The notes under the pieces: generated by a model | What the model was told of the DNA's origin: nothing | The model's input: only the letters and a program-made list of their open reading frames with translations | The model's database searches: none | NCBI GenBank assembly: GCA_964456135.1 | Contig: CAYVZD010000002.1 | Span: forward strand, 16,125-80,124 | Length of the DNA: 64,000 nt | From: an uncultured Bifidobacterium sp. | Lineage (GTDB): Bacteria; Actinomycetota; Actinomycetes; S36-B12; UBA5976 | Direction: 5' to 3' | Made by a program: the position numbers and the translations under genes | Shown: piece by piece, positions 46,880-63,474 of the stretch | Position numbering within the stretch: the stretch's first letter is position 1 | Layout of the letters: each line of letters starts with the position of its first letter

Positions 46880-48325
46880 ATGTCCAACTTAGGTCTTAAC
46901 AACGCCCAAGATGTCCTTAAATACATAAAAGATAACAACGTCAAATTTGTTGACGTGAGATTTTGCGACTTACCTGGTGTGCAGCAACATTTCAACATGC
47001 CAGTTGAATCAGTCAACGAGGCTCTATTTACTGATGGTCAGATGTTCGACGGTTCTTCGATTCGTGGCTTCCAGTCAATTCATGAATCAGATATGAAATT
47101 AATTCCAGATCCAACAACAGCTTTTATCGATCCATTCCGTGAAGCAAAAACATTAGTAATGAATTTTTCAGTTCATGATCCGTTTACCGACGAACCTTAT
47201 AGCCGTGACCCACGCAACGTCGCTGCCAAAGCCCAGGCTTACTTAGCCTCAACTGGAATCGCGGACACTGCATTCTTTGCCCCTGAAGCAGAATTTTTCA
47301 TTTTCGATTCAGTGCGATTTAGTACAGCTTCAAACGAAGCGTTTTATCACATCGATTCAATCGAAGGTGCTTGGAATACCGGCAGTGAATTTAATGCAGA
47401 TGGTTCAGATAATCGTGGCTATAAAACTCCAACTAAAGGTGGCTACTTCCCTGTTTCTCCTACAGATCAGATGGCTGATCTGCGCGACTCAATTGTCACC
47501 AAACTTGGTGAAGTGGGCCTACTAGTAGAGCGTTCACATCATGAAGTTGGTAGCCCAGGTCAAATGGAAATTAACTATCGCTTTAACACTTTGCTAAAAG
47601 CAGCAGACGAAGTGATGTTGTTTAAGTACGTTGTTAAAAATCAAGCCTGGGCTCAAGGTAAAACAGCTACTTTTATGCCTAAGCCGATTTTTGGTGACAA
47701 TGGCTCAGGTATGCACGTACATCAATCACTTTGGAGTAACGGAAAGCCACTGTTCTTTGATGAACGTGGATATGGCGGTTTGTCTGACACGGCCCGCTGG
47801 TACATCGGTGGAATCTTGAAGCATGCCCCATCGCTACTTGCTTTCACAAACCCAACTGTTAACTCCTACCATCGCTTAGTACCTGGTTACGAAGCACCAG
47901 TTAACTTGGTTTACTCGCAACGAAATAGATCAGCTTGTATTCGAATTCCAATTACTGGAAGTAACCCGAAAGCCAAGCGCATCGAATTTCGTTGTCCAGA
48001 TCCATCTAGCAATCCATATCTAGCTTTTGCTGCATTACTAATGGCGGGATTAGATGGCATCAAGAACAAGATTGAACCTCATGCGCCTGTAGATAAGGAT
48101 CTTTACGAGTTGCCACCTGATGAAGCAGCTGACATTCCACAGGTTCCAAGTTCGTTGCCAGAAGTTCTAGCAGCGCTAGAAGCCGATCACGACTACTTGA
48201 TGGAAGGTGGCGTATTCACTCAGGACTTAATCGACACTTGGATCTCGTATAAGAGAACCGCTGAGGTTGATTACGTTCGACTACGTCCACATCCTGCTGA
48301 GTTTGAGTTGTACTACAACTTATAA
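46880..48325 (+). CDS. glnA: glutamine synthetase type I
   Basis: 481-aa GSI. It carries an adenylylation-site context ([10 protein letters not shown]) consistent with the glnE in this window. The RBS is GGAGGA. Confidence 0.95.
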
Positions 48326-54263: not shown

Positions 54264-55208
54264 ATGCGACACATTACAAGTGAAGAAATAGATAACTGCC
54301 TTGACTTTCCAAACTTGGTAAAAAGTCTGGAAAACGCATTCAAGTCAAATTGGACCACTCCAGTTCGGGCACATCACACAGTTACCGGAATTGGTCAAGA
54401 CAAAGTGATGTTGTTGATGCCTTCATGGACAGATAACCAAGAGCCACCATTTATGGGGGTAAAGATTGCAACTGTCGTTCCAGAAAATGGAACTAGGAAT
54501 TTACCAAGTATTTTTGGCGTCTACTACCTAATGAATGGGCACACAGGCGAACCATTAGTAACTATGGATGGAGCCAGACTTACCGTCTGGCGCACAGCAG
54601 CTGCATCGGCATTGGCAAGCAGCTACCTTTCTCGAAAAAATAGCAAGGTCTTAACCATGATTGGTTCGGGTGCATTGAGTCCATTCATGATCAAAGCGCA
54701 CATGGCAGTACGCCCAATCGAGGAAGTTTTTTTGTGGAACCACAACATTCGCAATGCTCATGCATTGGCTGAAAAACTTCGTGCTGAAGGAATCCCGGTT
54801 ACATCGCACCCAGATTTAGTTTCGGCGGTTGAAAAAAGTGACATTGTTAGCGCTGCAACTTTAACTAAGACGCCACTAGTGCATGGAAAATGGATTAAGC
54901 CCGGTACCCACGTTGATACTGTTGGCGCATTCACTCCTTTGATGCGTGAAACCGATGATGAGTTAGTTTCTAAGGCAACTATTTTTTGTGACACATTTGA
55001 CGGCGCACTAAAAGAGGCTGGTGATTTAGTTATGCCAATTTCTGCTGGGGTAATTTCGCGCAATGATGTTGTCGCTGACTTATTTGCATTGGCCAGGAAG
55101 TCACACCCCGGCAGAACTTCAGATTCAGAAATTACTTACTTCAAATCAGTTGGCACGGCACTTGAAGACTTAGCAGGTGCAATCACAGTTTGGAATTTAA
55201 GTAATTAA
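54264..55208 (+). CDS. ornithine cyclodeaminase / mu-crystallin family protein
   Basis: 314 aa with LTVWRTAAASALAS and Rossmann motif MIGSGALS, typical of the OCD family. The RBS is AGGAGG. Confidence 0.8.
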   Translation: MRHITSEEIDNCLDFPNLVKSLENAFKSNWTTPVRAHHTVTGIGQDKVMLLMPSWTDNQEPPFMGVKIATVVPENGTRNLPSIFGVYYLMNGHTGEPLVTMDGARLTVWRTAAASALASSYLSRKNSKVLTMIGSGALSPFMIKAHMAVRPIEEVFLWNHNIRNAHALAEKLRAEGIPVTSHPDLVSAVEKSDIVSAATLTKTPLVHGKWIKPGTHVDTVGAFTPLMRETDDELVSKATIFCDTFDGALKEAGDLVMPISAGVISRNDVVADLFALARKSHPGRTSDSEITYFKSVGTALEDLAGAITVWNLSN

Positions 55209-55209
55209 A

Positions 55210-56670
55210 GTGACTCAGGATCAAACTCCGTACGCTGATGCGATTAAGTCATACGCTAAACGCCGGTATGCGAAATTTGCCACTCCTGGCTTTCAATTAG
55301 ATTCGAATTGGCAAAGTAGCGCACAACCAGAATTGATAGATTTTTTTGGCGCAGACTTATTGGCCATGGATGTTCAGCCGCTTATTGATGGTATTGATTA
55401 CGGCACCTATCCAACTCCACTAGATCAATCACTAGAACTGGCTGCACAAGCTTGGGGCGCAAAGCGAACTTGGTTTTTAGCAAACGGTGCTTCGATGGGA
55501 AACCTCACGGCATGTTTAGCAATCAGTAATTTTGGTCAAAACATTGTGGTGCAAAGGTCTATGCACTCTTCGGTTATCGACGGTCTGGCGCTATCTGGAC
55601 TGGTGGCCGATTTTGTCTTCCCTTCGGTCGACGCTGAACTAGGGATTGCAAATGGAGTAAGTGCAATTGATTTGGAACGCGCGCTTAGTGAGTGTCCAAA
55701 TCCTGTTGCCGCTTACATTGTGACGCCCAGTTACTTTGGCGCGGTTTCAGATGTTGCCCAGTTAGCAAAAGTTGCCCACAGCTTTAATGTGCCGCTAATC
55801 GTTGATGAGGCTTGGGGTGCACATTTTGGCTTTCATCCAAGATTGCCAACTAATGCAATCCGTCTTGGCGCTGATTTAGTCGTCAGCAGCACACATAAAT
55901 TAGCCGGCTCGATTTCACAAACCGCCATGCTGCATTTGGGGCATGGTGAACATGCAGCAAAGCTTGAACCTTTTGTTGAACGGGCATTTCGATCTATGCA
56001 ATCCACAAGCGTGAACTCGTTATTTCTAGCTGCCCTAGACATTGCCCGAAAGCAGTTGGCAGTGAACGGCCTGCAGACAATTGGTAATTCGATCGAACTT
56101 GCAAACAAAATTCGAACTGGAATTAAATCTGGCGGACGTTTTGTCGATGCCGCTGACCAAATTTCAACACACCCAGATGTTCTAACAACTGATCCTCTGC
56201 GAATCACAATCAATACCAAAATTGGAAATATTTCGGGCTATTCCGCAAGATCTATTTTGTTCAATGAACACAATGTACATTGTGAGATGGCGACTGACCA
56301 TACTTTAGTTGCCTTAATTGGTGCCGGCGCGACACCAGAAGTTGAAAAGTTTTTAACCGCCTTGCACAAACTGCCACAAACGCAGTTAGCGACACAAGAT
56401 AATGTTTCTTTACCTAAGCCTGGCCAGCGCAAACTTTCAGTTCGACAGGCTTATTTTGGCCAAACTGAACTGGTTCCAGCAAGTAGCGCTGTTGGAAGAA
56501 TCTCGGCTGACAGTGCAGCTGCCTACCCACCAGGTATTCCAAATCTGCTTCCTGGTGAAATTATTACCCAAGAGAACATTGACTTCTTGCAAGCAACAGT
56601 CAAGGCACCGTTTGGGCATGTACGCGGTGGTGCCAGCAAAGATATGACTATTTTTCGCGTCGTTCGCTAA
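55210..56670 (+). CDS. PLP-dependent Orn/Lys/Arg decarboxylase family protein (short SpeA/YaaO-like type)
   Basis: 486 aa with the PLP-lysine context VVSSTHKLAGS and IVDEAWGAHFGF. The GTG start lies 1 nt after the OCD-family stop. Confidence 0.8.
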   Translation: MTQDQTPYADAIKSYAKRRYAKFATPGFQLDSNWQSSAQPELIDFFGADLLAMDVQPLIDGIDYGTYPTPLDQSLELAAQAWGAKRTWFLANGASMGNLTACLAISNFGQNIVVQRSMHSSVIDGLALSGLVADFVFPSVDAELGIANGVSAIDLERALSECPNPVAAYIVTPSYFGAVSDVAQLAKVAHSFNVPLIVDEAWGAHFGFHPRLPTNAIRLGADLVVSSTHKLAGSISQTAMLHLGHGEHAAKLEPFVERAFRSMQSTSVNSLFLAALDIARKQLAVNGLQTIGNSIELANKIRTGIKSGGRFVDAADQISTHPDVLTTDPLRITINTKIGNISGYSARSILFNEHNVHCEMATDHTLVALIGAGATPEVEKFLTALHKLPQTQLATQDNVSLPKPGQRKLSVRQAYFGQTELVPASSAVGRISADSAAAYPPGIPNLLPGEIITQENIDFLQATVKAPFGHVRGGASKDMTIFRVVR

Positions 56671-59609
56671 ACATTGGTTTCGACTTGTTCACCATAAAAA
56701 ACTCTTTGCACAACCTGACGTGCTAAACGTGTTGTTCGTCGATAATCTTCAAGTAGTTGTTGTCCCCCACGTAGGCCATAGCCCAGTTGGTAAGCAACTC
56801 GAGCAAGATCGATTAAATCTGTAGGTAAAGTGTCGCTTGGTTTACCTTTAACGAGCATGACTGCATTACGCACTTTGGTACATAGTTGCCATGCATTAAT
56901 AAGCGATTTACAATCGGCCGCCGAAAGTAAATCAAGACTTTCTGCAGTGCGTAGGGCTTCAACAGTTCGAGTAGTTTGTAATTGCGGGAATTTGTAAGCA
57001 TGGCCCAACTGCAGTATTTGGGCAACCCACTCAACGTCACTCAATCCTCCGGGACCAAGTTTCGTGTGCAAACTTGGATCAACCCCCCGCGGTAACCGCT
57101 CTGATTCCATTCGGGCTTTAAGTCTGCGGATTTCGCGCAATTCATTTTCAGGTAATCCAGTTTCTCGGTAACGAATTGGATTAATCAGATTCAAAAATTG
57201 GGCGGCTAATTCTTGATCGCCAGCGCTTATGTTTGCTCGAAGTAAAGCTTGGGTTTCCCAGCCTGCTGACCAGCGTTGGTAATAAGAATCGAATGAATCA
57301 AAACTACGAACTAGTGGACCATTTTTTCCTTCGGGCCGTAGATCAGCATCGATTACTAATTCAGGATCAGGACTTGGTGCCATCAAAAGTGAGCGTAAAT
57401 TATTTGCCATTTGATGTGCTATCTGATTTTCAATTTGTGCATTCGCTGAATCTGAATAGCAGAACATCACATCTGCATCACTGCCATAACCTAATTCGCA
57501 ACCGCCATAACGACCCATGGCAATAATTAAAAACTCCGGCGCCTGCTGTGTTGCTCGAGTGACTACGGATAAAGTGCCCGCCAATGTGGCATCTGTAATG
57601 TCAGTAAGTACCTGACCTACTTGTTCAACATCTAGATAGCCAAGAATGTCAGCACAGCTGACTCGGAATAACTCTCGTCTGCGCACAGCTCGAATTGCCG
57701 CTACTGCCTCGGCTGTCTGTTCATATCGAGATGCGATGGCGTTAATTTCGGTTGTCAGCTCATCGCGGGATCTTGGTTTTAATGATTCTTCACTGGCCAG
57801 TAAATTAACTGCTTCTGGTGCGCGAAGTAATAAATCTGTTGCGTACTTACTAGTAGCCAAAATAGTTGCTAACCGCTGGGCAGTTGCAGACTCATCGCGA
57901 AGTAAACGTAAATACCAAGGTGTAGTTCCAAGTGCCTCGCTAACTTGGCGGAAACCAAAAAGACCGGAGTCAGGATCAGGTGCTTGTGCAAACCATTCGA
58001 GCATTACTGGTAACAAAGTGCGCTGGATCGAAGCTTTTCTTGAGACACCTGTTGTTAATGCTTCTAAGTGGCGAAGTGCGCCGGCTGGGTCTTGATAGCC
58101 AAGCACTGCTAAGCGAGCACTGGCTGCTTCGGGTGTTAGCCTGGCCGCGGAACTATCGAGTTTTACTACCGCATTTAATAAAGGTCGATAAAAAAGTTTT
58201 TCGTGCAGACGTTTAACTTCGCGAGCATATTTTTTCCATTCTTTAGTCAATTCAGAAATTGGATCAACCAAGTAACCCATAGACCGTCCAATTTGGCGTT
58301 GACGATCTTCCTCTGTGGGCATGATGTGCGTGCGCCGCATTCGGTGCAACTGAATCCGATGCTCTAATGTTCGTAAAAATCTATATGCCGAGGAAAGGGT
58401 GGCTGCGTCCTCGCGGGCCACATAACCCCAAGTAGCGAGTTGCTCTAGCGCCAGCAAAGTGTTTGGGCTTCGAACTAATTCATCAGAACGACCATGGACC
58501 ATTTGTAAAAGTTGTACTGCGAATTCGACATCGCGTAAGCCACCACGACCTAGTTTTAATTCGCGATCTGCATCCTTAGATGGAATGTATTCAGCGACTC
58601 GCTCGCGCATTGCCTGTACATCTTCGATAAATCCAGGACGATTTGCTGCCTGCCAAATGTAAGGCAAAGTCGCGGCAATAAATTGCTCCCCTAACTGCAA
58701 ACTTCCCGCCATCGGTCTGGCTTTAAGTAATGCTTGGAACTCCCATGACTGGGCCCAGCGGTCGTAATAATCCAGATAACTTGGCAAGGTGCGCACTAGC
58801 GCCCCGGCTTTACCCTCGGGACGCAGCGCTGCATCCACTTCCCAAATCGAACCTTCTGTTGTGGGTAGCGAGCAAGCTTGCATTAACTTTTTAGCGATTT
58901 GGGTGCCAATTTCTATGGCGGCAGTTTCGTCTACTGTATTTGCTGTCATCGCAGCTGGCTGCAATACAAAAACTACGTCTACATCGCTGACATAGTTCAA
59001 TTCACGCGCTCCACATTTGCCCATGGCAATAACCGCTAGCTCAACTTTTTCGCTCTGGTCGGTGTATTTTCTTGCCAGGTAAAGAGCAGACTCGATAACT
59101 GCATCAGCCAAGTCGCTAAGCGCAGTAGCAATACCTGGAAGTATGTTTACGCTATTTTCTTTTGCAACCACATCGAGTGCGGCGATGGCACTTAACTCTT
59201 TACGATAGGCAATTCGAAGGGCAATTAACCCGTCATCCCAAGATTCGGTAGGTGTTACTGCTAGTAGTAAGGCAGAAACCAATTCGTCTCGACTCGGGAC
59301 ACTTTCAGCTGCTGCAACGTATGGGACATGAAAAGGAAATCTAATTAAGTGTTCACCTAACGCAACAGATGAGCCAAGTAACTCAACTATTTTTTGCCAG
59401 TTAGCAGCGGTGAAACCGGCAAAGTCAATTGACCCAGTTTGAATTAGCTTTGCTAAATTTTCTAAGGCTAAATCTGGATCAGCAGTTTCCTTTAAGTAAT
59501 CAAGTGCCGAATCTAAAAGTGGAGTTTTTTCAACTAGATCAGCAGCATGAGTGGTATTTGAAAATCCAAGTCTGGCTAATCTAGCTGCTCCTGAACTTTC
59601 TCTAGTCAT
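56667..59609 (-). CDS. glnE: bifunctional glutamine synthetase adenylyltransferase/adenylyl-removing enzyme
   Basis: 980 aa with two nucleotidyltransferase domains (GKCGARELNYVSDVDVVF and GRYGGCELGYGSDADVMF), each followed by a GlnE-type helical domain. Confidence 0.95.
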   Translation of the reverse strand: MTRESSGAARLARLGFSNTTHAADLVEKTPLLDSALDYLKETADPDLALENLAKLIQTGSIDFAGFTAANWQKIVELLGSSVALGEHLIRFPFHVPYVAAAESVPSRDELVSALLLAVTPTESWDDGLIALRIAYRKELSAIAALDVVAKENSVNILPGIATALSDLADAVIESALYLARKYTDQSEKVELAVIAMGKCGARELNYVSDVDVVFVLQPAAMTANTVDETAAIEIGTQIAKKLMQACSLPTTEGSIWEVDAALRPEGKAGALVRTLPSYLDYYDRWAQSWEFQALLKARPMAGSLQLGEQFIAATLPYIWQAANRPGFIEDVQAMRERVAEYIPSKDADRELKLGRGGLRDVEFAVQLLQMVHGRSDELVRSPNTLLALEQLATWGYVAREDAATLSSAYRFLRTLEHRIQLHRMRRTHIMPTEEDRQRQIGRSMGYLVDPISELTKEWKKYAREVKRLHEKLFYRPLLNAVVKLDSSAARLTPEAASARLAVLGYQDPAGALRHLEALTTGVSRKASIQRTLLPVMLEWFAQAPDPDSGLFGFRQVSEALGTTPWYLRLLRDESATAQRLATILATSKYATDLLLRAPEAVNLLASEESLKPRSRDELTTEINAIASRYEQTAEAVAAIRAVRRRELFRVSCADILGYLDVEQVGQVLTDITDATLAGTLSVVTRATQQAPEFLIIAMGRYGGCELGYGSDADVMFCYSDSANAQIENQIAHQMANNLRSLLMAPSPDPELVIDADLRPEGKNGPLVRSFDSFDSYYQRWSAGWETQALLRANISAGDQELAAQFLNLINPIRYRETGLPENELREIRRLKARMESERLPRGVDPSLHTKLGPGGLSDVEWVAQILQLGHAYKFPQLQTTRTVEALRTAESLDLLSAADCKSLINAWQLCTKVRNAVMLVKGKPSDTLPTDLIDLARVAYQLGYGLRGGQQLLEDYRRTTRLARQVVQRVFYGEQVETNV

Positions 59610-59611
59610 AC

Positions 59612-60340
59612 TTAGATTGCCTGACTGGCCAAAATTGACTTAGCCCAATTTTCAAAAACTGGGCGCCAAGTTTTGACTAATTCATCCTGTGCGTGATCTA
59701 TCTCGGCCAATGTTTCCTCTGGTGAGATGCTCATTTTTTGCAGAACTTGATCATCTGGCTTGGCCCACTTCGACACTGTATTTACTGAGACTTCTGGATG
59801 AAACTGCATGCCATAAACATTGTCACCCAGACGAAACGCGTGAACTGGACATTGATCATTTGCCGCCAAAACAACTGCATCATCTGGCAGATCAACTATG
59901 TAGTCCTGATGCCAACTAACTACTGGGATTACTTGGCCAGCTAGTTGTCCAAATAATTGATCAGATTTTGCTTCGTGGCTAATCCCAACTTCAACTAACC
60001 CGGCTTCCGGGCTGGGCGTGCGCACTGATTTGCCATCAACTGCGGTGGCTAACATTTGCGCACCTAAACAAATTCCGACAAACGGGAAATCTTGGGCAAT
60101 TGCATCTTTCATCAGTGAGCGCTGTGCCGTTAACCAACCATATTCCTCATCATCATGTGCACCCATTCGACCGCCCAAGACAAGTAATCCGTGAAACTTG
60201 TGCGGTATCTCGGCTGGCATCTGATCGCCCGCATGAGGGCGGATTATTTCTAATTCGAGACCGGCTTGGGTTAACCAAGTTGCGACTAAATCAATCGGCG
60301 CAACTGAGTCGTTTTCGACGACAAGTACCTTTGGTTTCAT
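59612..60340 (-). CDS. class I glutamine amidotransferase-like protein (stand-alone, GMP-synthase-GATase/COG0518-like)
   Basis: 242 aa with nucleophile elbow GICLGAQML and the His/Glu pair in MQFHPE. Its start abuts the glnA2 stop (TAAATG) and its stop lies 2 nt before the glnE start. Confidence 0.8.
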   Translation of the reverse strand: MKPKVLVVENDSVAPIDLVATWLTQAGLELEIIRPHAGDQMPAEIPHKFHGLLVLGGRMGAHDDEEYGWLTAQRSLMKDAIAQDFPFVGICLGAQMLATAVDGKSVRTPSPEAGLVEVGISHEAKSDQLFGQLAGQVIPVVSWHQDYIVDLPDDAVVLAANDQCPVHAFRLGDNVYGMQFHPEVSVNTVSKWAKPDDQVLQKMSISPEETLAEIDHAQDELVKTWRPVFENWAKSILASQAI

Positions 60341-61678
60341 TTATAACACCGGCAAGTAACGGTCGAGTTCGTAAGGAGTTACTTGCGCGCGGTACTCTTC
60401 CCACTCTTGGCGCTTATTGCGTAAGAAAAAGTCGAAAACATGCTCACCAAGTGTTTGCGCAACGAGTTCGCTGCGCTCCATCAAAGTGATTGCTTGGCCA
60501 AGGGACTGCGGTAATTGGGTAATGCCTAATGCGCGGCGCTCAGCATCGGTTAGCGACCAAACATCATCTTCGGCACCAGGTGGTAATTCATAACCTTCCT
60601 CAATACCTTTTAGCCCTGCAGCTAGTAGCAAGGCGAAAGAAAGGTAGGGGTTACAGGCTGGATCTATCGAGCGAATTTCAATCCGAGTTGAATTACCTTT
60701 AGCTGGTTTGTACATCGGCACTCGAATCAGTGCTGAGCGATTATTGTGACCCCAACAAATATACGATGGTGCTTCCCCGCCGCCGCCAAGTCGTTTGTAC
60801 GAATTAACCCATTGATTTGTTACAGCCGTAAATTCTGGAGCATGCTTAAGTAATCCGGCAATGAATTGTCGGCCAGTTTTACTTAACTGGTACTCGGCGC
60901 CTGCTTCATAGAATGCGTTTTTGTCCCCTTCAAATAGTGATAAGTGAGTATGCATACCTGAGCCTGGATACTGCGCAAATGGTTTTGGCATGAAAGATGC
61001 ATAAAGACCCTGTTCAAGCGCTACTTCTTTCATGACTACGCGGAACGTCATGATGTTATCTGCGGTAGTCAATGCATCTGCATAACGCAAGTCAATTTCT
61101 TGTTGACCTGGTGCACCTTCGTGATGACTAAACTCAACTGAAATCCCCATTGCTTCTAGCATTGTGATTGCCTGACGACGGAAGTCGTAGCCAACTCCAC
61201 TAGGCGAGTGATCGAAATAACCGACTTCATCAACCGGAATTGGCGTTACTCCTTTTTCCGGCTGATTTTTGAATAAGAAAAACTCAATTTCGGGATGTGT
61301 GTAAAAGGTAAAGCCAAGTTCGGCTGCCTTACCAAGAGCTCGCTTCAATACATTTCTTGGATCAGCAAATGATGCACTACCGTCTGGCAAATTAATGTCG
61401 CAGAACATTCTGGCTACGCTGTTCTGTTCACCGCGCCACGGCAGAATCGTAAATGTCTCAGGGTCAGGTTTGGCCAGCATGTCAGATTCATAAACACGGG
61501 CGAAGCCTTCAATAGCTGAGCCGTCGAATCCGATACCTTCAGCAAATGCGCCTTCAAGTTCAGCCGGGGCGATTGCAACAGATTTAAGTGTGCCTAGTAC
61601 GTCGGTAAACCAAAGGCGGACAAAGCGAATGTCCCGCTCTTCCATCGACCGCAATACAAATTCAGTTTGCTTATCCAT
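60341..61678 (-). CDS. glnA2: glutamine synthetase type I family protein (GlnA2-type, no adenylylation motif seen)
   Basis: 445 aa with the GS beta-grasp and catalytic domains (FDGSAIEGF, HHEGAPGQQEI, GSGMHTHLSL, NRSALIRVP). The position is syntenic with mycobacterial glnA2 next to glnE. Confidence 0.9.
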   Translation of the reverse strand: MDKQTEFVLRSMEERDIRFVRLWFTDVLGTLKSVAIAPAELEGAFAEGIGFDGSAIEGFARVYESDMLAKPDPETFTILPWRGEQNSVARMFCDINLPDGSASFADPRNVLKRALGKAAELGFTFYTHPEIEFFLFKNQPEKGVTPIPVDEVGYFDHSPSGVGYDFRRQAITMLEAMGISVEFSHHEGAPGQQEIDLRYADALTTADNIMTFRVVMKEVALEQGLYASFMPKPFAQYPGSGMHTHLSLFEGDKNAFYEAGAEYQLSKTGRQFIAGLLKHAPEFTAVTNQWVNSYKRLGGGGEAPSYICWGHNNRSALIRVPMYKPAKGNSTRIEIRSIDPACNPYLSFALLLAAGLKGIEEGYELPPGAEDDVWSLTDAERRALGITQLPQSLGQAITLMERSELVAQTLGEHVFDFFLRNKRQEWEEYRAQVTPYELDRYLPVL

Positions 61679-61725
61679 ACCCCTATGGTGCTCGCCTTTC
61701 GTTACAGCAGTGTTACAAGCCCGAT

Positions 61726-63474
61726 ATGCTGGTACGCGTGAATACCATCCGCTTGGCGCTGGCCCAAGTTAATCCCACGGTTGGCGATATCGCTGGAAAC
61801 CTAAACCTTTGTTTTGAATCTGTCGCCAAAGCGAGCGCTGCTGGTGCGCAATTAGTTTTATTGCCAGAAATGGTAATAACTGGTTACCCAATTGATGATC
61901 TAGCCCTACGCCCGTCTTTTCAAAAAGCTAGTGGTGAGGCAATTCAAGAATTAGCCACCAGATTGGCAAGCGAAAATTTAGGTCACCTAGTTGTGGTTGT
62001 CGGTTATTTACGTGGGACTGACAATGACGACGCTGAAAAATTAGGGGTTCCTCGGGGTGCACCGATGAATAGTGCTGCGGTGATTCACCAAGGAAAAATA
62101 CTTGGCCATTACAACAAACATCACTTGCCCAACTATGGGGTTTTTGATGAATTTCGGCACTTCGTCTCTGGGGATGAATCGCTAATTATTCGCGCCTTCG
62201 ATACTGATATTGCTTTGGCAATTTGTGAAGATCTGTGGCAAGACGGTGGACCGGTTGCCCGAGTTAAAGATAGTGGCGCCAGTTTGCTGCTAGTGCTAAA
62301 CGGATCTCCATATGAAAGAAATAAAGACGATGTTCGACTTGAACTAGTAAGGAAACGTGCGGCACAAGCAAACGTAACTCTGGCCTACGTAAACATGGTT
62401 GGTGGCCAAGATGACTTGGTTTTTGATGGAGACTCAATCGTGGTCTCAGCGCAAGGACAGATTTTGGCCAGAGCAAAGCAATTTGAAACTGAACTTTTAG
62501 TTCTAGACATAGAAGTAAGGCCAGCCGGGACTGCGACATTGCTTTCAACCGGCGAACCAGTATTAGTTGTTAACCAAAAATCTGACTCCCCCAAAGCAGC
62601 GCTTACTGGAAAAATTCGTGAACAACTTTCCGATTACGAAGAGTTATACAACGCACTGGTACTTAGCCTTCGGGACTACGTACAAAAAAATGGATTTAAG
62701 TCTGTTTTATTCGGCCTATCTGGGGGCATCGATTCAGCGCTAGTTGCGGCAATTGCTTGCGATGCAATTGGGGCAAAAAATGTTTACGCCATCTCTATGC
62801 CATCAAAATATTCCTCAGAACATTCGAAATCGGATGCACAAGATTTAGCCAGCCGTACTGGACTAAATTTGCGAGAAATTGCCATTGAACCGATGGTTGC
62901 GGCATTTTTGGCAGAGCTTAAATTGAGTGGTTTAGCTGAAGAAAATTTGCAGGCGCGAGTACGCGGTATGACGTTAATGGGAATTTCCAACCAAGAGGGT
63001 CATTTAGTTTTAGCCACTGGTAATAAAAGTGAGTTAGCTGTTGGCTACTCAACAATCTATGGAGATGCCGTAGGTGGATTTGCTCCAATTATGGACGTGC
63101 CAAAAGTTGATGTCTGGGCTTTAGCTAAATGGCGAAATGAAAATGCCCTTGCTAACGGGACCACACCACCGATTCCAGAATCGTCGATCACTAAGCCACC
63201 AAGTGCAGAATTGCGCCCAGGACAAAAAGATTCAGATTCGCTGCCAGATTACGAAGTTCTTGATGCGATTTTGCGCGAATATATTGAATTTGATCGAAGC
63301 CTAGATGAAATTGTGGCTCAAGGATTTCCAGAAAAAGTTGTGCAAAAAACCTTGCAGCTAACCGATCGAGCCGAATACAAACGGCGACAGTATCCGCCTG
63401 GCCCTAAAGTCTCGGGTAAAGCGTTTGGTCGAGATCGTCGATTGCCAATGACCAGCAAATGGCGTGAATCTTAA
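61726..63474 (+). CDS. nadE: glutamine-dependent NAD+ synthetase (CN-hydrolase domain plus synthetase domain)
   Basis: 582 aa with an N-terminal nitrilase-like domain (LPEMVITGYP, CEDLW) and a C-terminal PP-loop LFGLSGGIDSA. A GTG at 61738 is an alternative start. Confidence 0.9.
   Translation: MLVRVNTIRLALAQVNPTVGDIAGNLNLCFESVAKASAAGAQLVLLPEMVITGYPIDDLALRPSFQKASGEAIQELATRLASENLGHLVVVVGYLRGTDNDDAEKLGVPRGAPMNSAAVIHQGKILGHYNKHHLPNYGVFDEFRHFVSGDESLIIRAFDTDIALAICEDLWQDGGPVARVKDSGASLLLVLNGSPYERNKDDVRLELVRKRAAQANVTLAYVNMVGGQDDLVFDGDSIVVSAQGQILARAKQFETELLVLDIEVRPAGTATLLSTGEPVLVVNQKSDSPKAALTGKIREQLSDYEELYNALVLSLRDYVQKNGFKSVLFGLSGGIDSALVAAIACDAIGAKNVYAISMPSKYSSEHSKSDAQDLASRTGLNLREIAIEPMVAAFLAELKLSGLAEENLQARVRGMTLMGISNQEGHLVLATGNKSELAVGYSTIYGDAVGGFAPIMDVPKVDVWALAKWRNENALANGTTPPIPESSITKPPSAELRPGQKDSDSLPDYEVLDAILREYIEFDRSLDEIVAQGFPEKVVQKTLQLTDRAEYKRRQYPPGPKVSGKAFGRDRRLPMTSKWRES

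Follow-up and report, generated by a model that had tools for sequence, protein, structure and literature searches.

A predicted gamma-glutamyl amidase gene between glnA2 and glnE in a streamlined freshwater actinobacterium

The glnA2–glnE region of actinobacteria is a much-studied nitrogen-control locus. The two genes are transcriptionally linked in M. tuberculosis as well as in C. glutamicum and, as that source presents them, join directly with no gene in between (PMC2667176). The 64,000-nucleotide stretch of DNA analyzed here (the window) comes from an abundant, streamlined freshwater actinobacterium with a genome of about 1.2–1.5 Mb. It carries the orthologous flanking genes in the same order and orientation, yet holds a third gene, here called gat, between them. 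What does the product of this gene do, and which of its neighbors does it serve? The original prediction took the adjacency of glnA2 and glnE in M. tuberculosis as its starting point, which the published account backs, and read gat as a lineage-specific insertion forming a PuuA/PuuD-like gamma-glutamylation module with glnA2. The genes concerned are, in window coordinates:

glnA2, 60341..61678, minus strand: 445-aa paralogue of glutamine synthetase (GS) of the GSI-alpha type (Pfam, NCBIfam, residue table)
gat, 59612..60340, minus strand: 242-aa predicted gamma-glutamyl amidase with a stand-alone class-I glutamine amidotransferase (GATase) fold (Pfam, NCBIfam, AF2, Foldseek)
glnE, 56667..59609, minus strand: 980-aa bifunctional GS adenylyltransferase/adenylyl-removing enzyme (PRK14109)
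nadE, 61726..63474, plus strand: glutamine-dependent NAD+ synthetase with CN_hydrolase and NAD_synthase domains (Pfam, NCBIfam)
glnA1, 46880..48325, plus strand: GSI-beta-type glutamine synthetase, the presumed GlnE target
Orn/Lys/Arg decarboxylase family gene, 55210..56670, plus strand: 486 aa, downstream flank (Pfam)

The end-to-end packing of the three minus-strand genes was borne out by the open reading frames and by reads of the junctions, which are TAAATG between glnA2 and gat (0 nt gap) and TAA-gt-ATG between gat and glnE (2 nt gap). The start codons of all three proteins are sound, with orthologue alignments beginning at residues 1–3. Upstream, nadE diverges from glnA2 with 47 nt between the starts. 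Downstream, the decarboxylase gene converges on glnE, their ends overlapping by 4 nt, and glnA1 lies 8.3 kb from the end of glnE; the source genome holds only two GS genes. Gaps of 0–2 nt are unremarkable by themselves here because the window is ~94% coding and 10 of its 32 same-strand neighbor gaps are 2 nt or shorter (median 12 nt). What exceeds chance is that the arrangement is kept in distant, large, high-GC genomes. Furthermore, the retention of gat in a streamlined genome of ~1.2–1.5 Mb implies a real fitness value. Contigs from an RNA library span both gene junctions, with window positions 56600–59383 (most of glnE) outside their coverage. Scans for promoters and terminators returned nothing beyond shuffled expectation.

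The product of gat belongs to the class-I glutamine amidotransferase superfamily (PF00117, 68.6 bits against a cut-off of 22.8). The catalytic Cys, His, and Glu motifs on which the original prediction relied are present (VGICLGAQ and MQFHPE) and supply an intact triad, Cys91-His181-Glu183. Cys91 is invariant in two orthologue alignments of 22 and 35 rows, as are His181 and Glu183 in the larger alignment; in the smaller one, the latter two are nearly invariant. Gln95 and Asp146, located in the CLGAQ and WHxD motifs, are also invariant. Judged by motif position only, these two would correspond to the S1 residues Q104 and D157 of the Arabidopsis peptidase GGP1, which are reported as conserved across the GGP1-like group (PMC12958103). 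The AF2 model of the protein (pLDDT 96.5) has the flavodoxin-like GATase fold followed by a C-terminal helical extension (residues 186–240). A Foldseek search gave 288 PDB matches (E ≤ 0.001); with one exception, those listed were GATases or GATase-fold peptidases. The best were TM1158, DnfC, 3m3p, MsGATase, SMU.1228c, and GGP1 (TM 0.72–0.86).

Both sequence and fold place the nearest relatives (TM1158, DnfC, MsGATase, and GGP1) among the COG0518-type stand-alone GATases rather than on the PuuD/C26 side. The PuuD identity in the original prediction therefore did not survive: no gamma-glutamyl-GABA hydrolase (PuuD) model is among the protein’s 22 NCBIfam matches, its Pfam C26 match (40 bits) covers profile positions 94–219 only and is weaker than PF00117, and the operon contains no genes of the Puu route. 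A GuaA subunit or domain was rejected as well (TIGR00888, 71 against 172; PRK00758, 74 against 198). A further GATase match in the source genome falls in a 524-aa open frame (G000:C3) whose length is, we presume, that of a full guaA. The gat product shares ~240 aa, the triad, and the C-terminal helices with GATases of the YfeJ/TM1158 type (PDB 1o1y, 3m3p, and 3l7n; TM 0.83–0.84 on the query). These are also its best sequence matches, yet it misses every curated NCBIfam cut-off for them (PRK07053, 126.9 against 250; PRK06490, 123.8 against 339; PRK09065, 110.9 against 205). We know of no physiological role assigned to the YfeJ/TM1158-type proteins and of no reported link between them and glnE.

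By size, C-terminal helices, and closest relatives (TM 0.81–0.86), the protein is thus a predicted member of the stand-alone YfeJ/TM1158/DnfC/GGP1-like group, an assignment drawn from its sequence and model. Characterized members of this group are reported to hydrolyze glutamine or gamma-glutamyl compounds. For example, the dirammox cluster of Alcaligenes encodes DnfC (PDB 8khs), which ranks second among the fold matches (TM 0.86, 29% identity); it is described as acting downstream of glutamine synthetase and as hydrolyzing glutamine and gamma-glutamyl hydroxamate (PMC11440038). Its reported partners are the DnfA/DnfB oxygenase system (PMC13753816), whereas no dnfA/dnfB-like gene lies in the glnA2-gat-glnE operon or immediately next to it. 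Arabidopsis GGP1 (PDB 9k7i-l) and the M. smegmatis MsGATase (7d54), a paralogue, share the fold at only 19–22% identity. GGP1 is reported to cleave gamma-glutamyl isopeptides, with glutathione conjugates as substrates, and MsGATase to have glutaminase activity.

The two neighbors within the operon are more readily classified. GlnE matches PRK14109 at 1302 bits (cut-off 625) and has two nucleotidyltransferase halves, visible as two PF03710 and two PF08335 stretches. The 445-aa GlnA2 has the Gln-synt_N and Gln-synt_C domains, exceeds the cut-off of the type I GlnA equivalog model (TIGR00653, 464.5 against 429.15 bits) and falls well below that of the gamma-glutamylputrescine synthetase PuuA (NF045547, 316 against 650). 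Its best PDB sequence matches are glutamine synthetase entries (8oow, 8tfb, and 4lnf). We compared six residues of the GS ammonium and glutamate sites, whose individual roles we partly presume. In the S. typhimurium numbering used in PMC8998196, these are Asp50, Ser53, Tyr179, Glu212, Asn264, and Glu327. The ammonium-site residues proposed for scoring in the original prediction are indeed not all kept. GlnA2 retains Asp50, Tyr179, Glu212, and Glu327 and has Ser53 replaced by Ala and Asn264 by Pro, changes found in all or nearly all of 39 orthologues and in none of eight GlnA1-type sequences. The flap reads GGGGEAP instead of VPGYEAP. S. coelicolor GlnA2, which is reported to glutamylate polyamines in vitro, lacks the same two residues (PMC8998196). 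M. tuberculosis GS2 is described as having a larger pocket, low activity with several nitrogen donors and slightly more activity with D-glutamate (PMC13740247).

A survey of gene neighborhoods showed that the adjacency is conserved in relatives and that gat is no lineage-specific insertion. The glnA2-gat-glnE trio is present in 31 of 40 other genomes of the genus, in all 11 same-genus loci fetched and in six genomes from four other families of the order. Within the class, the gene itself is spread over at least 14 GTDB families, and it occurs in at least eight named families; glnE follows it on the same strand at 26 of 80 named loci. Counts for the class sample hold among the matches listed. 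On that basis, 42 of 62 testable class genomes, from 14 GTDB families, have gat immediately upstream of glnE (among the matches listed). Likewise, it fills the glnA2–glnE junction in 25 of 97 testable class genomes, about a quarter, with gat–glnA2 gaps of 6–65 nt; in 38 of the 97, glnA2 joins glnE directly as in Mycobacterium (both among the matches listed). The direct junction is an alternative state to the trio. Six of six GATase-less loci with a 0.7-kb glnA2–glnE gap had no gat remnant in that gap by tblastn and profile search.

The gat-glnE junction is tight and conserved. In 18 of 22 loci no more than 70 nt separate the gat stop from the glnE match, and in 15 loci the pair stays tight while 1.7–3.9 kb of unrelated genes displace glnA2. 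We examined whether the intervening genes of Micromonosporaceae and other families might be conserved partners, and they vary from locus to locus (DUF350, WYL regulator, aminotransferase, GNAT, LtrA, acyltransferase, and alpha/beta hydrolase). The reverse break also occurs. gat and glnE are ~1 kb apart in one genus (G239 and G262) and ~5 kb apart in another family, no Streptomyces copy sampled adjoins glnE, and at one Frankiaceae locus glnA2-gat stands with no glnE within 5 kb. A GATase match was found in 0 of 18 glnE-less versus 135 of 232 glnE-positive class genomes (among the matches listed), with 15 of the 18 belonging to one genus, so that these kin are not independent. The gat products evolve fast (33–64% identity among orthologues), neighboring GlnA2 slowly (81–96%). 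Within the genus of the source organism, 31 genomes have both gat and glnE, eight have neither, one has glnE only and one has gat with glnE cut by a contig end. Their co-loss says little about function because a single block deletion likely explains it: in two relatives with identical flanks (L028 and L029), gat and glnE are missing and the decarboxylase gene directly follows glnA2. The decarboxylase gene also figures at locus L037. Long open frames suggestive of GATase-GlnE or GS-GATase fusions are high-GC artefacts, as separate frames and stops were present in 22 of 22 loci.

The wider block has glutamine as its common theme. nadE is a conserved neighbor, with a NadE homologue on 20 other fetched glnA2-holding loci, including named Micromonosporaceae, Frankiaceae, and Geodermatophilaceae, and at one non-actinobacterial locus (L104). 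In three loci (L045, L080, and L115), the opposite strand carries a GlnA1 homologue ~0.1–0.7 kb away from the glnE match. We tentatively favor, at somewhat less than even confidence, an accessory and dispensable gamma-glutamyl amidase, probably a glutaminase, that is produced alongside GlnE and GlnA2 within a block composed of nadE, glnA2-gat-glnE, and glnA1. The GATase would be a catalytically competent, stand-alone amidase, as its sequence and model predict, encoded by the middle, optional gene of an ancient operon of actinobacteria with nadE divergent upstream and glnA1 nearby or convergent downstream. Most likely, it would convert L-glutamine, or a small gamma-glutamyl amide that closely resembles it, to glutamate by hydrolyzing the gamma-amide. 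Made together with GlnE, it could act as an accessory glutamine drain, lowering glutamine and restoring glutamate as GlnE shuts off GlnA1 by adenylylation. We infer both glutamine as the substrate and the buffering of glutamine overshoot as the role. The gene is dispensable, since a comparable number of actinobacterial genomes join glnA2 directly to glnE. A constitutive glutaminase beside a GS would waste ATP and, therefore, regulation or a high Km has to be assumed. Against glutamine, GGP1 is a true gamma-glutamyl peptidase and an equally close fold relative, so the substrate may be a bulkier gamma-glutamyl compound. Also against the favored reading, the block can break between gat and glnE, and glnE occurs with no gat in genome G013 and in 38 of 97 testable class genomes (among the matches listed).

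The amine cycle proposed originally is the less probable but still credible reading that GlnA2 gamma-glutamylates a polyamine, cadaverine, or ethanolamine and that the GATase removes the glutamyl group after an oxidation encoded elsewhere, or in proof-reading or release. E. coli PuuA and PuuD follow the same logic, pairing a GS-fold ligase with a hydrolase of the class-I-GATase fold for gamma-glutamyl amides. The parts of this proposal that stood are the altered GS site and the conserved adjacency. The Ser53Ala and Asn264Pro changes and rebuilt flap of the GlnA2 clade, the S. coelicolor parallel at the same two positions, the pocket and multi-donor activity of M. tuberculosis GS2, the fold kinship with GGP1, and the 6–65 nt gaps between gat and glnA2 in the 25 junction-filling genomes (among the matches listed) are all consistent with it. 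So are the Orn/Lys/Arg decarboxylase gene flanking the operon and a Geobacteraceae GATase relative that adjoins genes for agmatine deiminase and N-carbamoylputrescine amidase. A Puu-like route requires an oxidase and an aldehyde dehydrogenase. The source genome has seven strong DAO-family and seven full-length aldehyde dehydrogenase genes and no other C26/PuuD candidate; however, no oxidase or dehydrogenase gene is in the block at any locus examined, and the trio block has glnE instead of PuuB and PuuC equivalents. The PuuD identity fell with the NCBIfam results, and GlnA2 passes the curated GlnA model while failing that of gamma-glutamylputrescine synthetase. Nor does GlnA2 depend on the GATase, as 248 of 251 class genomes have a GlnA2 orthologue and at most 136 a GATase profile match (among the matches listed). 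Displaced glnA2 with a tight gat-glnE pair (15 fetched loci) is also commoner than glnA2-gat without glnE (one clear case), and glutamylation followed by direct deglutamylation would be a futile cycle.

The Ser53Ala change and altered flap of GlnA2 could weaken binding of free ammonium, which brings in an improbable alternative, with ammonia supply from glutamine as also raised in the original prediction: the GATase may be a glutaminase subunit that donates ammonia to GlnA2, for example for D-glutamine or isoglutamine synthesis from D-glutamate, or to another synthase. The triad and predicted S1 site match those of an enzyme that uses glutamine, the slightly higher activity of M. tuberculosis GS2 with D-glutamate fits, and translational coupling at TAAATG would be apt for a 1:1 complex. 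About half of the class genomes have GlnA2 but no GATase (among the matches listed), which is not the pattern of an obligate subunit pair. No GlnA2-GATase fusion appeared in any locus inspected, the relatives elsewhere have no recurring synthase partner, and neighboring NadE has its own glutaminase domain. We consider it similarly doubtful that the protein is mainly a regulator, binding glutamine as a sensor or partner and thereby modulating GlnE or a GS in a PII-like role. The tight and widely conserved gat-glnE junction agrees with such a role, as do the lack of the GATase wherever glnE is absent (0 of 18, among the matches listed) and its divergence beside slow GlnA2, since accessory regulators often evolve fast. 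Strict conservation of the catalytic triad argues for catalysis, however, and many genomes have glnE without the GATase. PII proteins are partners in the control of GlnE in enterobacteria, and we know of no agent identified as doing this job in Actinobacteria. It would be a long shot that the GATase provides the glutamine input missing for GlnE in actinobacteria, as a partner that binds and hydrolyzes glutamine, is translationally coupled to GlnE, and sets the balance of GlnA1 adenylylation and deadenylylation or gates a GS directly. A complex prediction pairing the GATase (35-row alignment) with GlnE residues 1–490 (alignment A3) scored 0.00 and gives no answer either way.

We found no paper describing the gat orthologue group in a literature search. 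The trio is widespread in actinobacteria but missing from the studied M. tuberculosis, C. glutamicum, and S. coelicolor, which may be why the third gene went unnoticed. A glutaminase tied to GlnE, as favored here, would give the control of glutamine overshoot a second arm, a catabolic one. Should gat serve GlnA2 instead, it would help settle the job of a near-universal but enigmatic protein. In line with the favored reading, GATase relatives in other phyla are encoded in clusters of the types GSIII-GSI-GATase-GltB, GSIII-GATase-NadE, and ANTAR-GATase-porin-AmtB.

The class-I GATase gene (gat) is the middle one of three minus-strand open reading frames (ORFs) packed end to end, with the coordinates and junctions of the original prediction. 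A 47-nt intergenic region (61679-61725) separates the trio from nadE:

56667-59609, minus strand: glnE, actinobacterial-type GlnE, 980 aa (PRK14109, 1302 bits)
59612-60340, minus strand: gat, class-I GATase, 242 aa (PF00117, 68.6 bits; motifs VGICLGAQ and MQFHPE)
60341-61678, minus strand: glnA2, glutamine synthetase (GS) paralogue, 445 aa (both GS domains; TIGR00653, 464.5 bits against a cut-off of 429)
61726-63474, divergent from glnA2: nadE, glutamine-dependent NAD synthetase

The glnA2/gat junction reads TAAATG, and the gat stop codon (TAA) is followed by two bases and the ATG of glnE. Of 32 gaps between same-strand genes in the window, 10 are ≤2 nt, and such packing is ordinary in the source genome (1.15 Mb, 74 contigs, 79% complete, about 45% G+C), so that packing alone proves nothing. 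The gat/glnE junction is spanned by contigs of 373 and 241 nt and the glnA2/gat junction by one of 252 nt, all from a single metatranscriptome study (two runs). These contigs are consistent with co-transcription, with the reservation that they cannot prove a single molecule and that DNA carry-over is possible. Metagenomes from freshwater, lake and estuary carry DNA near-identical to the window. In runs X3 and X4, long contigs break inside glnA2 (61041-61120) and several short contigs of higher depth pile up, probably reflecting co-existing strains that share a conserved stretch.

The GATase had been proposed as a lineage-specific insertion, a view that its distribution contradicts. A gat orthologue and glnE are both present in 31 of 41 genomes of the window's genus (source genome included) and both absent from eight, three of which are ≥95% complete. 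G013 is the sole genome of the 41 with glnE and no gat, and G015 carries gat and only the 5' part of glnE before the contig end. All 11 fetched same-genus loci have the order glnA2-gat-glnE, with identities of 88-96% for the GS and 47-64% for the GATase. The trio recurs in four further families of the order (six genomes, 61-74% G+C; GS 81-84%, GATase 33-40% and GlnE about 54-55% identity). In a scan of public genomes, 26 of 80 loci have glnE after the GATase gene and in the same orientation; the families named are Micromonosporaceae, Streptosporangiaceae, Pseudonocardiaceae, Nakamurellaceae, Kineosporiaceae, Geodermatophilaceae, Frankiaceae and Jatrophihabitantaceae. Among relatives, adjacency of gat with glnE is conserved from genus to class.

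An even draw of the class Actinomycetes (251 genomes, source genome included) yielded glnE in 233, a GATase profile match (E≤1e-30) in 136 and a GlnA2 orthologue in 248 (≥76% identity among the matches listed); these three tallies alone include four genomes marked unpublished (G058, G063, G070 and G273). The matches listed contain 83 strong GATase matches, and for 62 of them glnE is listed in the same genome. Of these 62, 42 GATases (14 GTDB families) share the contig and strand of glnE and precede the listed GlnE domain by 1.7-2.4 kb, a spacing equal to that of the window; seven lie 2.8-7.7 kb from glnE and 13 on other contigs. Both glnA2 and glnE are readable in 97 genomes among the matches listed: they are joined directly in 38, the state described for M. 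tuberculosis and C. glutamicum in the available part of PMC2667176, separated by a GATase-sized gap in 32, and 3-12 kb apart in 14. A GATase fills 25 of the 32 gaps; of the seven without one, the six examined contain an unrelated ORF or a GlnE N-terminal extension. As the direct-junction and gat-filled counts show, two forms of the operon are common, one with gat in the middle and one lacking it. The gene is an optional third member of a classic nitrogen operon, and is more widespread than originally thought. Our literature search, which covered few subscription journals, found no paper on a GATase between glnA2 and glnE. The glnA2-glnE slots of 0.7-0.8 kb without a GATase at loci L117-L122 (G074, G118, G123, G044, G126 and G222) hold an ORF of 180-250 aa without a Pfam match or a GlnE N-terminal extension of ~230 aa.

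The GATase gene also shows a moderate tendency to accompany glnE. In 18 of the 22 loci inspected, ≤70 nt separate its stop codon from the beginning of the GlnE match, and none of the 22 has a gat-glnE fusion. Among 101 GATase homologues classed by context, both neighbours are tight in 24, gat-glnE is tight with glnA2 displaced or out of range in 15, and glnA2-gat occurs without glnE in four (three being contig ends). The genes displacing glnA2 differ between loci. The opposite break also occurs: gat and glnE are about 1 kb apart in one genus (G239 and G262) and about 5 kb apart in a different family. A GATase match is absent from all 18 class genomes that lack glnE (15 from one genus). In the genus of the window, both genes appear to have been deleted together as one block, so that their co-loss is weak evidence. 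GlnA2 is clearly independent of gat. One genus in family f36 (G066 and 14 more complete genomes, 1.3-1.5 Mb) has no glnE match and keeps a GlnA2 orthologue; glnE has likewise been lost in a subclade of the genus to which the window belongs.

A NadE homologue was matched on 20 other fetched glnA2-bearing loci from several actinobacterial families. In L045, L080 and L115, about 0.1-0.7 kb at most separates the glnE match from an opposite-strand GlnA1 homologue; glnA1 is 8.3 kb from glnE in the window. At 54264-56670, a delta1-pyrroline/piperideine-2-carboxylate reductase-type gene (OCD/mu-crystallin family) lies 1 nt from an Orn/Lys/Arg decarboxylase family gene. The pair is convergent with glnE, overlapping it by 4 nt, and is kept in L037; the decarboxylase gene, which adjoins glnE in the window, adjoins glnA2 in L028 and L029, which points to the block deletion described above.

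Cys91 of the GATase is invariant in both alignments (22 and 35 rows). His181, Glu183, Gln95 and Asp146 are invariant in the 35 orthologues aligned, and His181 and Glu183 are nearly so in the earlier 22 rows. The AF2 model (pLDDT 96.5) has a C-terminal helical extension. Sequence comparison places the GATase nearest to the solved chains 9xfs, 3m3p, TM1158, 3l7n and archaeal GMP-synthase A subunits, and fold comparison nearest to TM1158, DnfC, 3m3p, MsGATase, SMU.1228c and Arabidopsis GGP1. MsGATase is described as a glutaminase, and GGP1 as acting on glutathione and glutathione conjugates, whose gamma-glutamyl bond it cleaves (PMC12958103, excerpts). DnfC, which acts downstream of GlnA, reportedly hydrolyses glutamine and gamma-glutamyl hydroxamate (PMC11440038, in part), and its true role is still disputed in the accessible text of PMC11440038 and PMC13753816. 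Our tentative reading, plausible if short of probable, is that the GATase is a gamma-glutamyl amidase that would hydrolyse mainly glutamine and, co-expressed with GlnE, would act as an accessory glutamine drain; both substrate and role are predicted. That the GATase regulates GlnE or a GS as their partner appears improbable, and we give equally little credence to an ammonia-donor subunit.

The original prediction paired the GATase with GlnA2 in a Puu-like amine cycle, in which a GS-fold ligase glutamylates an amine and a PuuD-like hydrolase removes the glutamyl group. The PuuD likeness did not hold up: the GATase matched no PuuD model in NCBIfam, and all curated cut-offs were missed. The best PDB matches of GlnA2 are entries named glutamine synthetase (8oow, 8tfb and 4lnf; about 55% identity, estimated by eye from alignments). 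We take these to be GSI-alpha enzymes of archaea and Firmicutes. In 39 GlnA2 orthologues compared with eight GlnA1-type sequences, Ser53 is replaced by Ala in all 39 (FDGSA for FDGSS) and Asn264 by Pro in 37 (PGS[GA]MH for NGSGMH) and Ala in the other two. The flap reads GGGGEAP or variants where GlnA1-type has VPGYEAP, and the loop before the conserved STRI/KRI motif is 1 aa longer than in GlnA1-type and 3 aa longer than in 8oow. Asp50, Tyr179, Glu212 and Glu327 are kept. S. coelicolor GlnA2, reported to lack both Ser53 and Asn264, glutamylates polyamines in vitro (PMC8998196, excerpts). The M. tuberculosis orthologue, tetradecameric in its structure, has weak activity that is slightly higher with D-glutamate (PMC13740247, in part), and glnA2 is reported as essential in M. 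smegmatis (PMC6142876, excerpts). A Puu-like amine cycle with GlnA2 is unlikely, if less so than the regulatory and ammonia-donor readings.

In a quick tree, the glnE-linked GATases form two neighbouring actinobacterial clades. The 18 Streptomyces copies sampled fall in a separate clade (16) or a small mixed clade (two), and none is beside glnE. Some distant relatives lie in nitrogen-assimilation clusters and others have unrelated neighbours. Three from outside Actinomycetota cluster together in the tree:

L100, 2547-9666: GSIII-GSI-GATase-GltB, Planctomycetales MAG
L104, 1384-7303: GAF/ANTAR-GSIII-GATase-NadE, Omnitrophota MAG, nadE directly after the GATase relative
L092, 4239-8629: ANTAR regulator-GATase-porin-AmtB, Myxococcota MAG

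An NhaA-type Na+/H+ antiporter gene adjoins a GATase homologue at three unrelated loci (L039, 1433-2677; L059, 2789-3973; L083, 3803-4990), and a different Na+/H+ exchanger is near one in L106. These neighbours may point to a connection of pH homeostasis with the release of ammonia. A Microbacterium locus (L107, 3915-5720) has one open frame with an M19 membrane-dipeptidase domain followed by a GATase domain, a candidate fusion or high-GC read-through.
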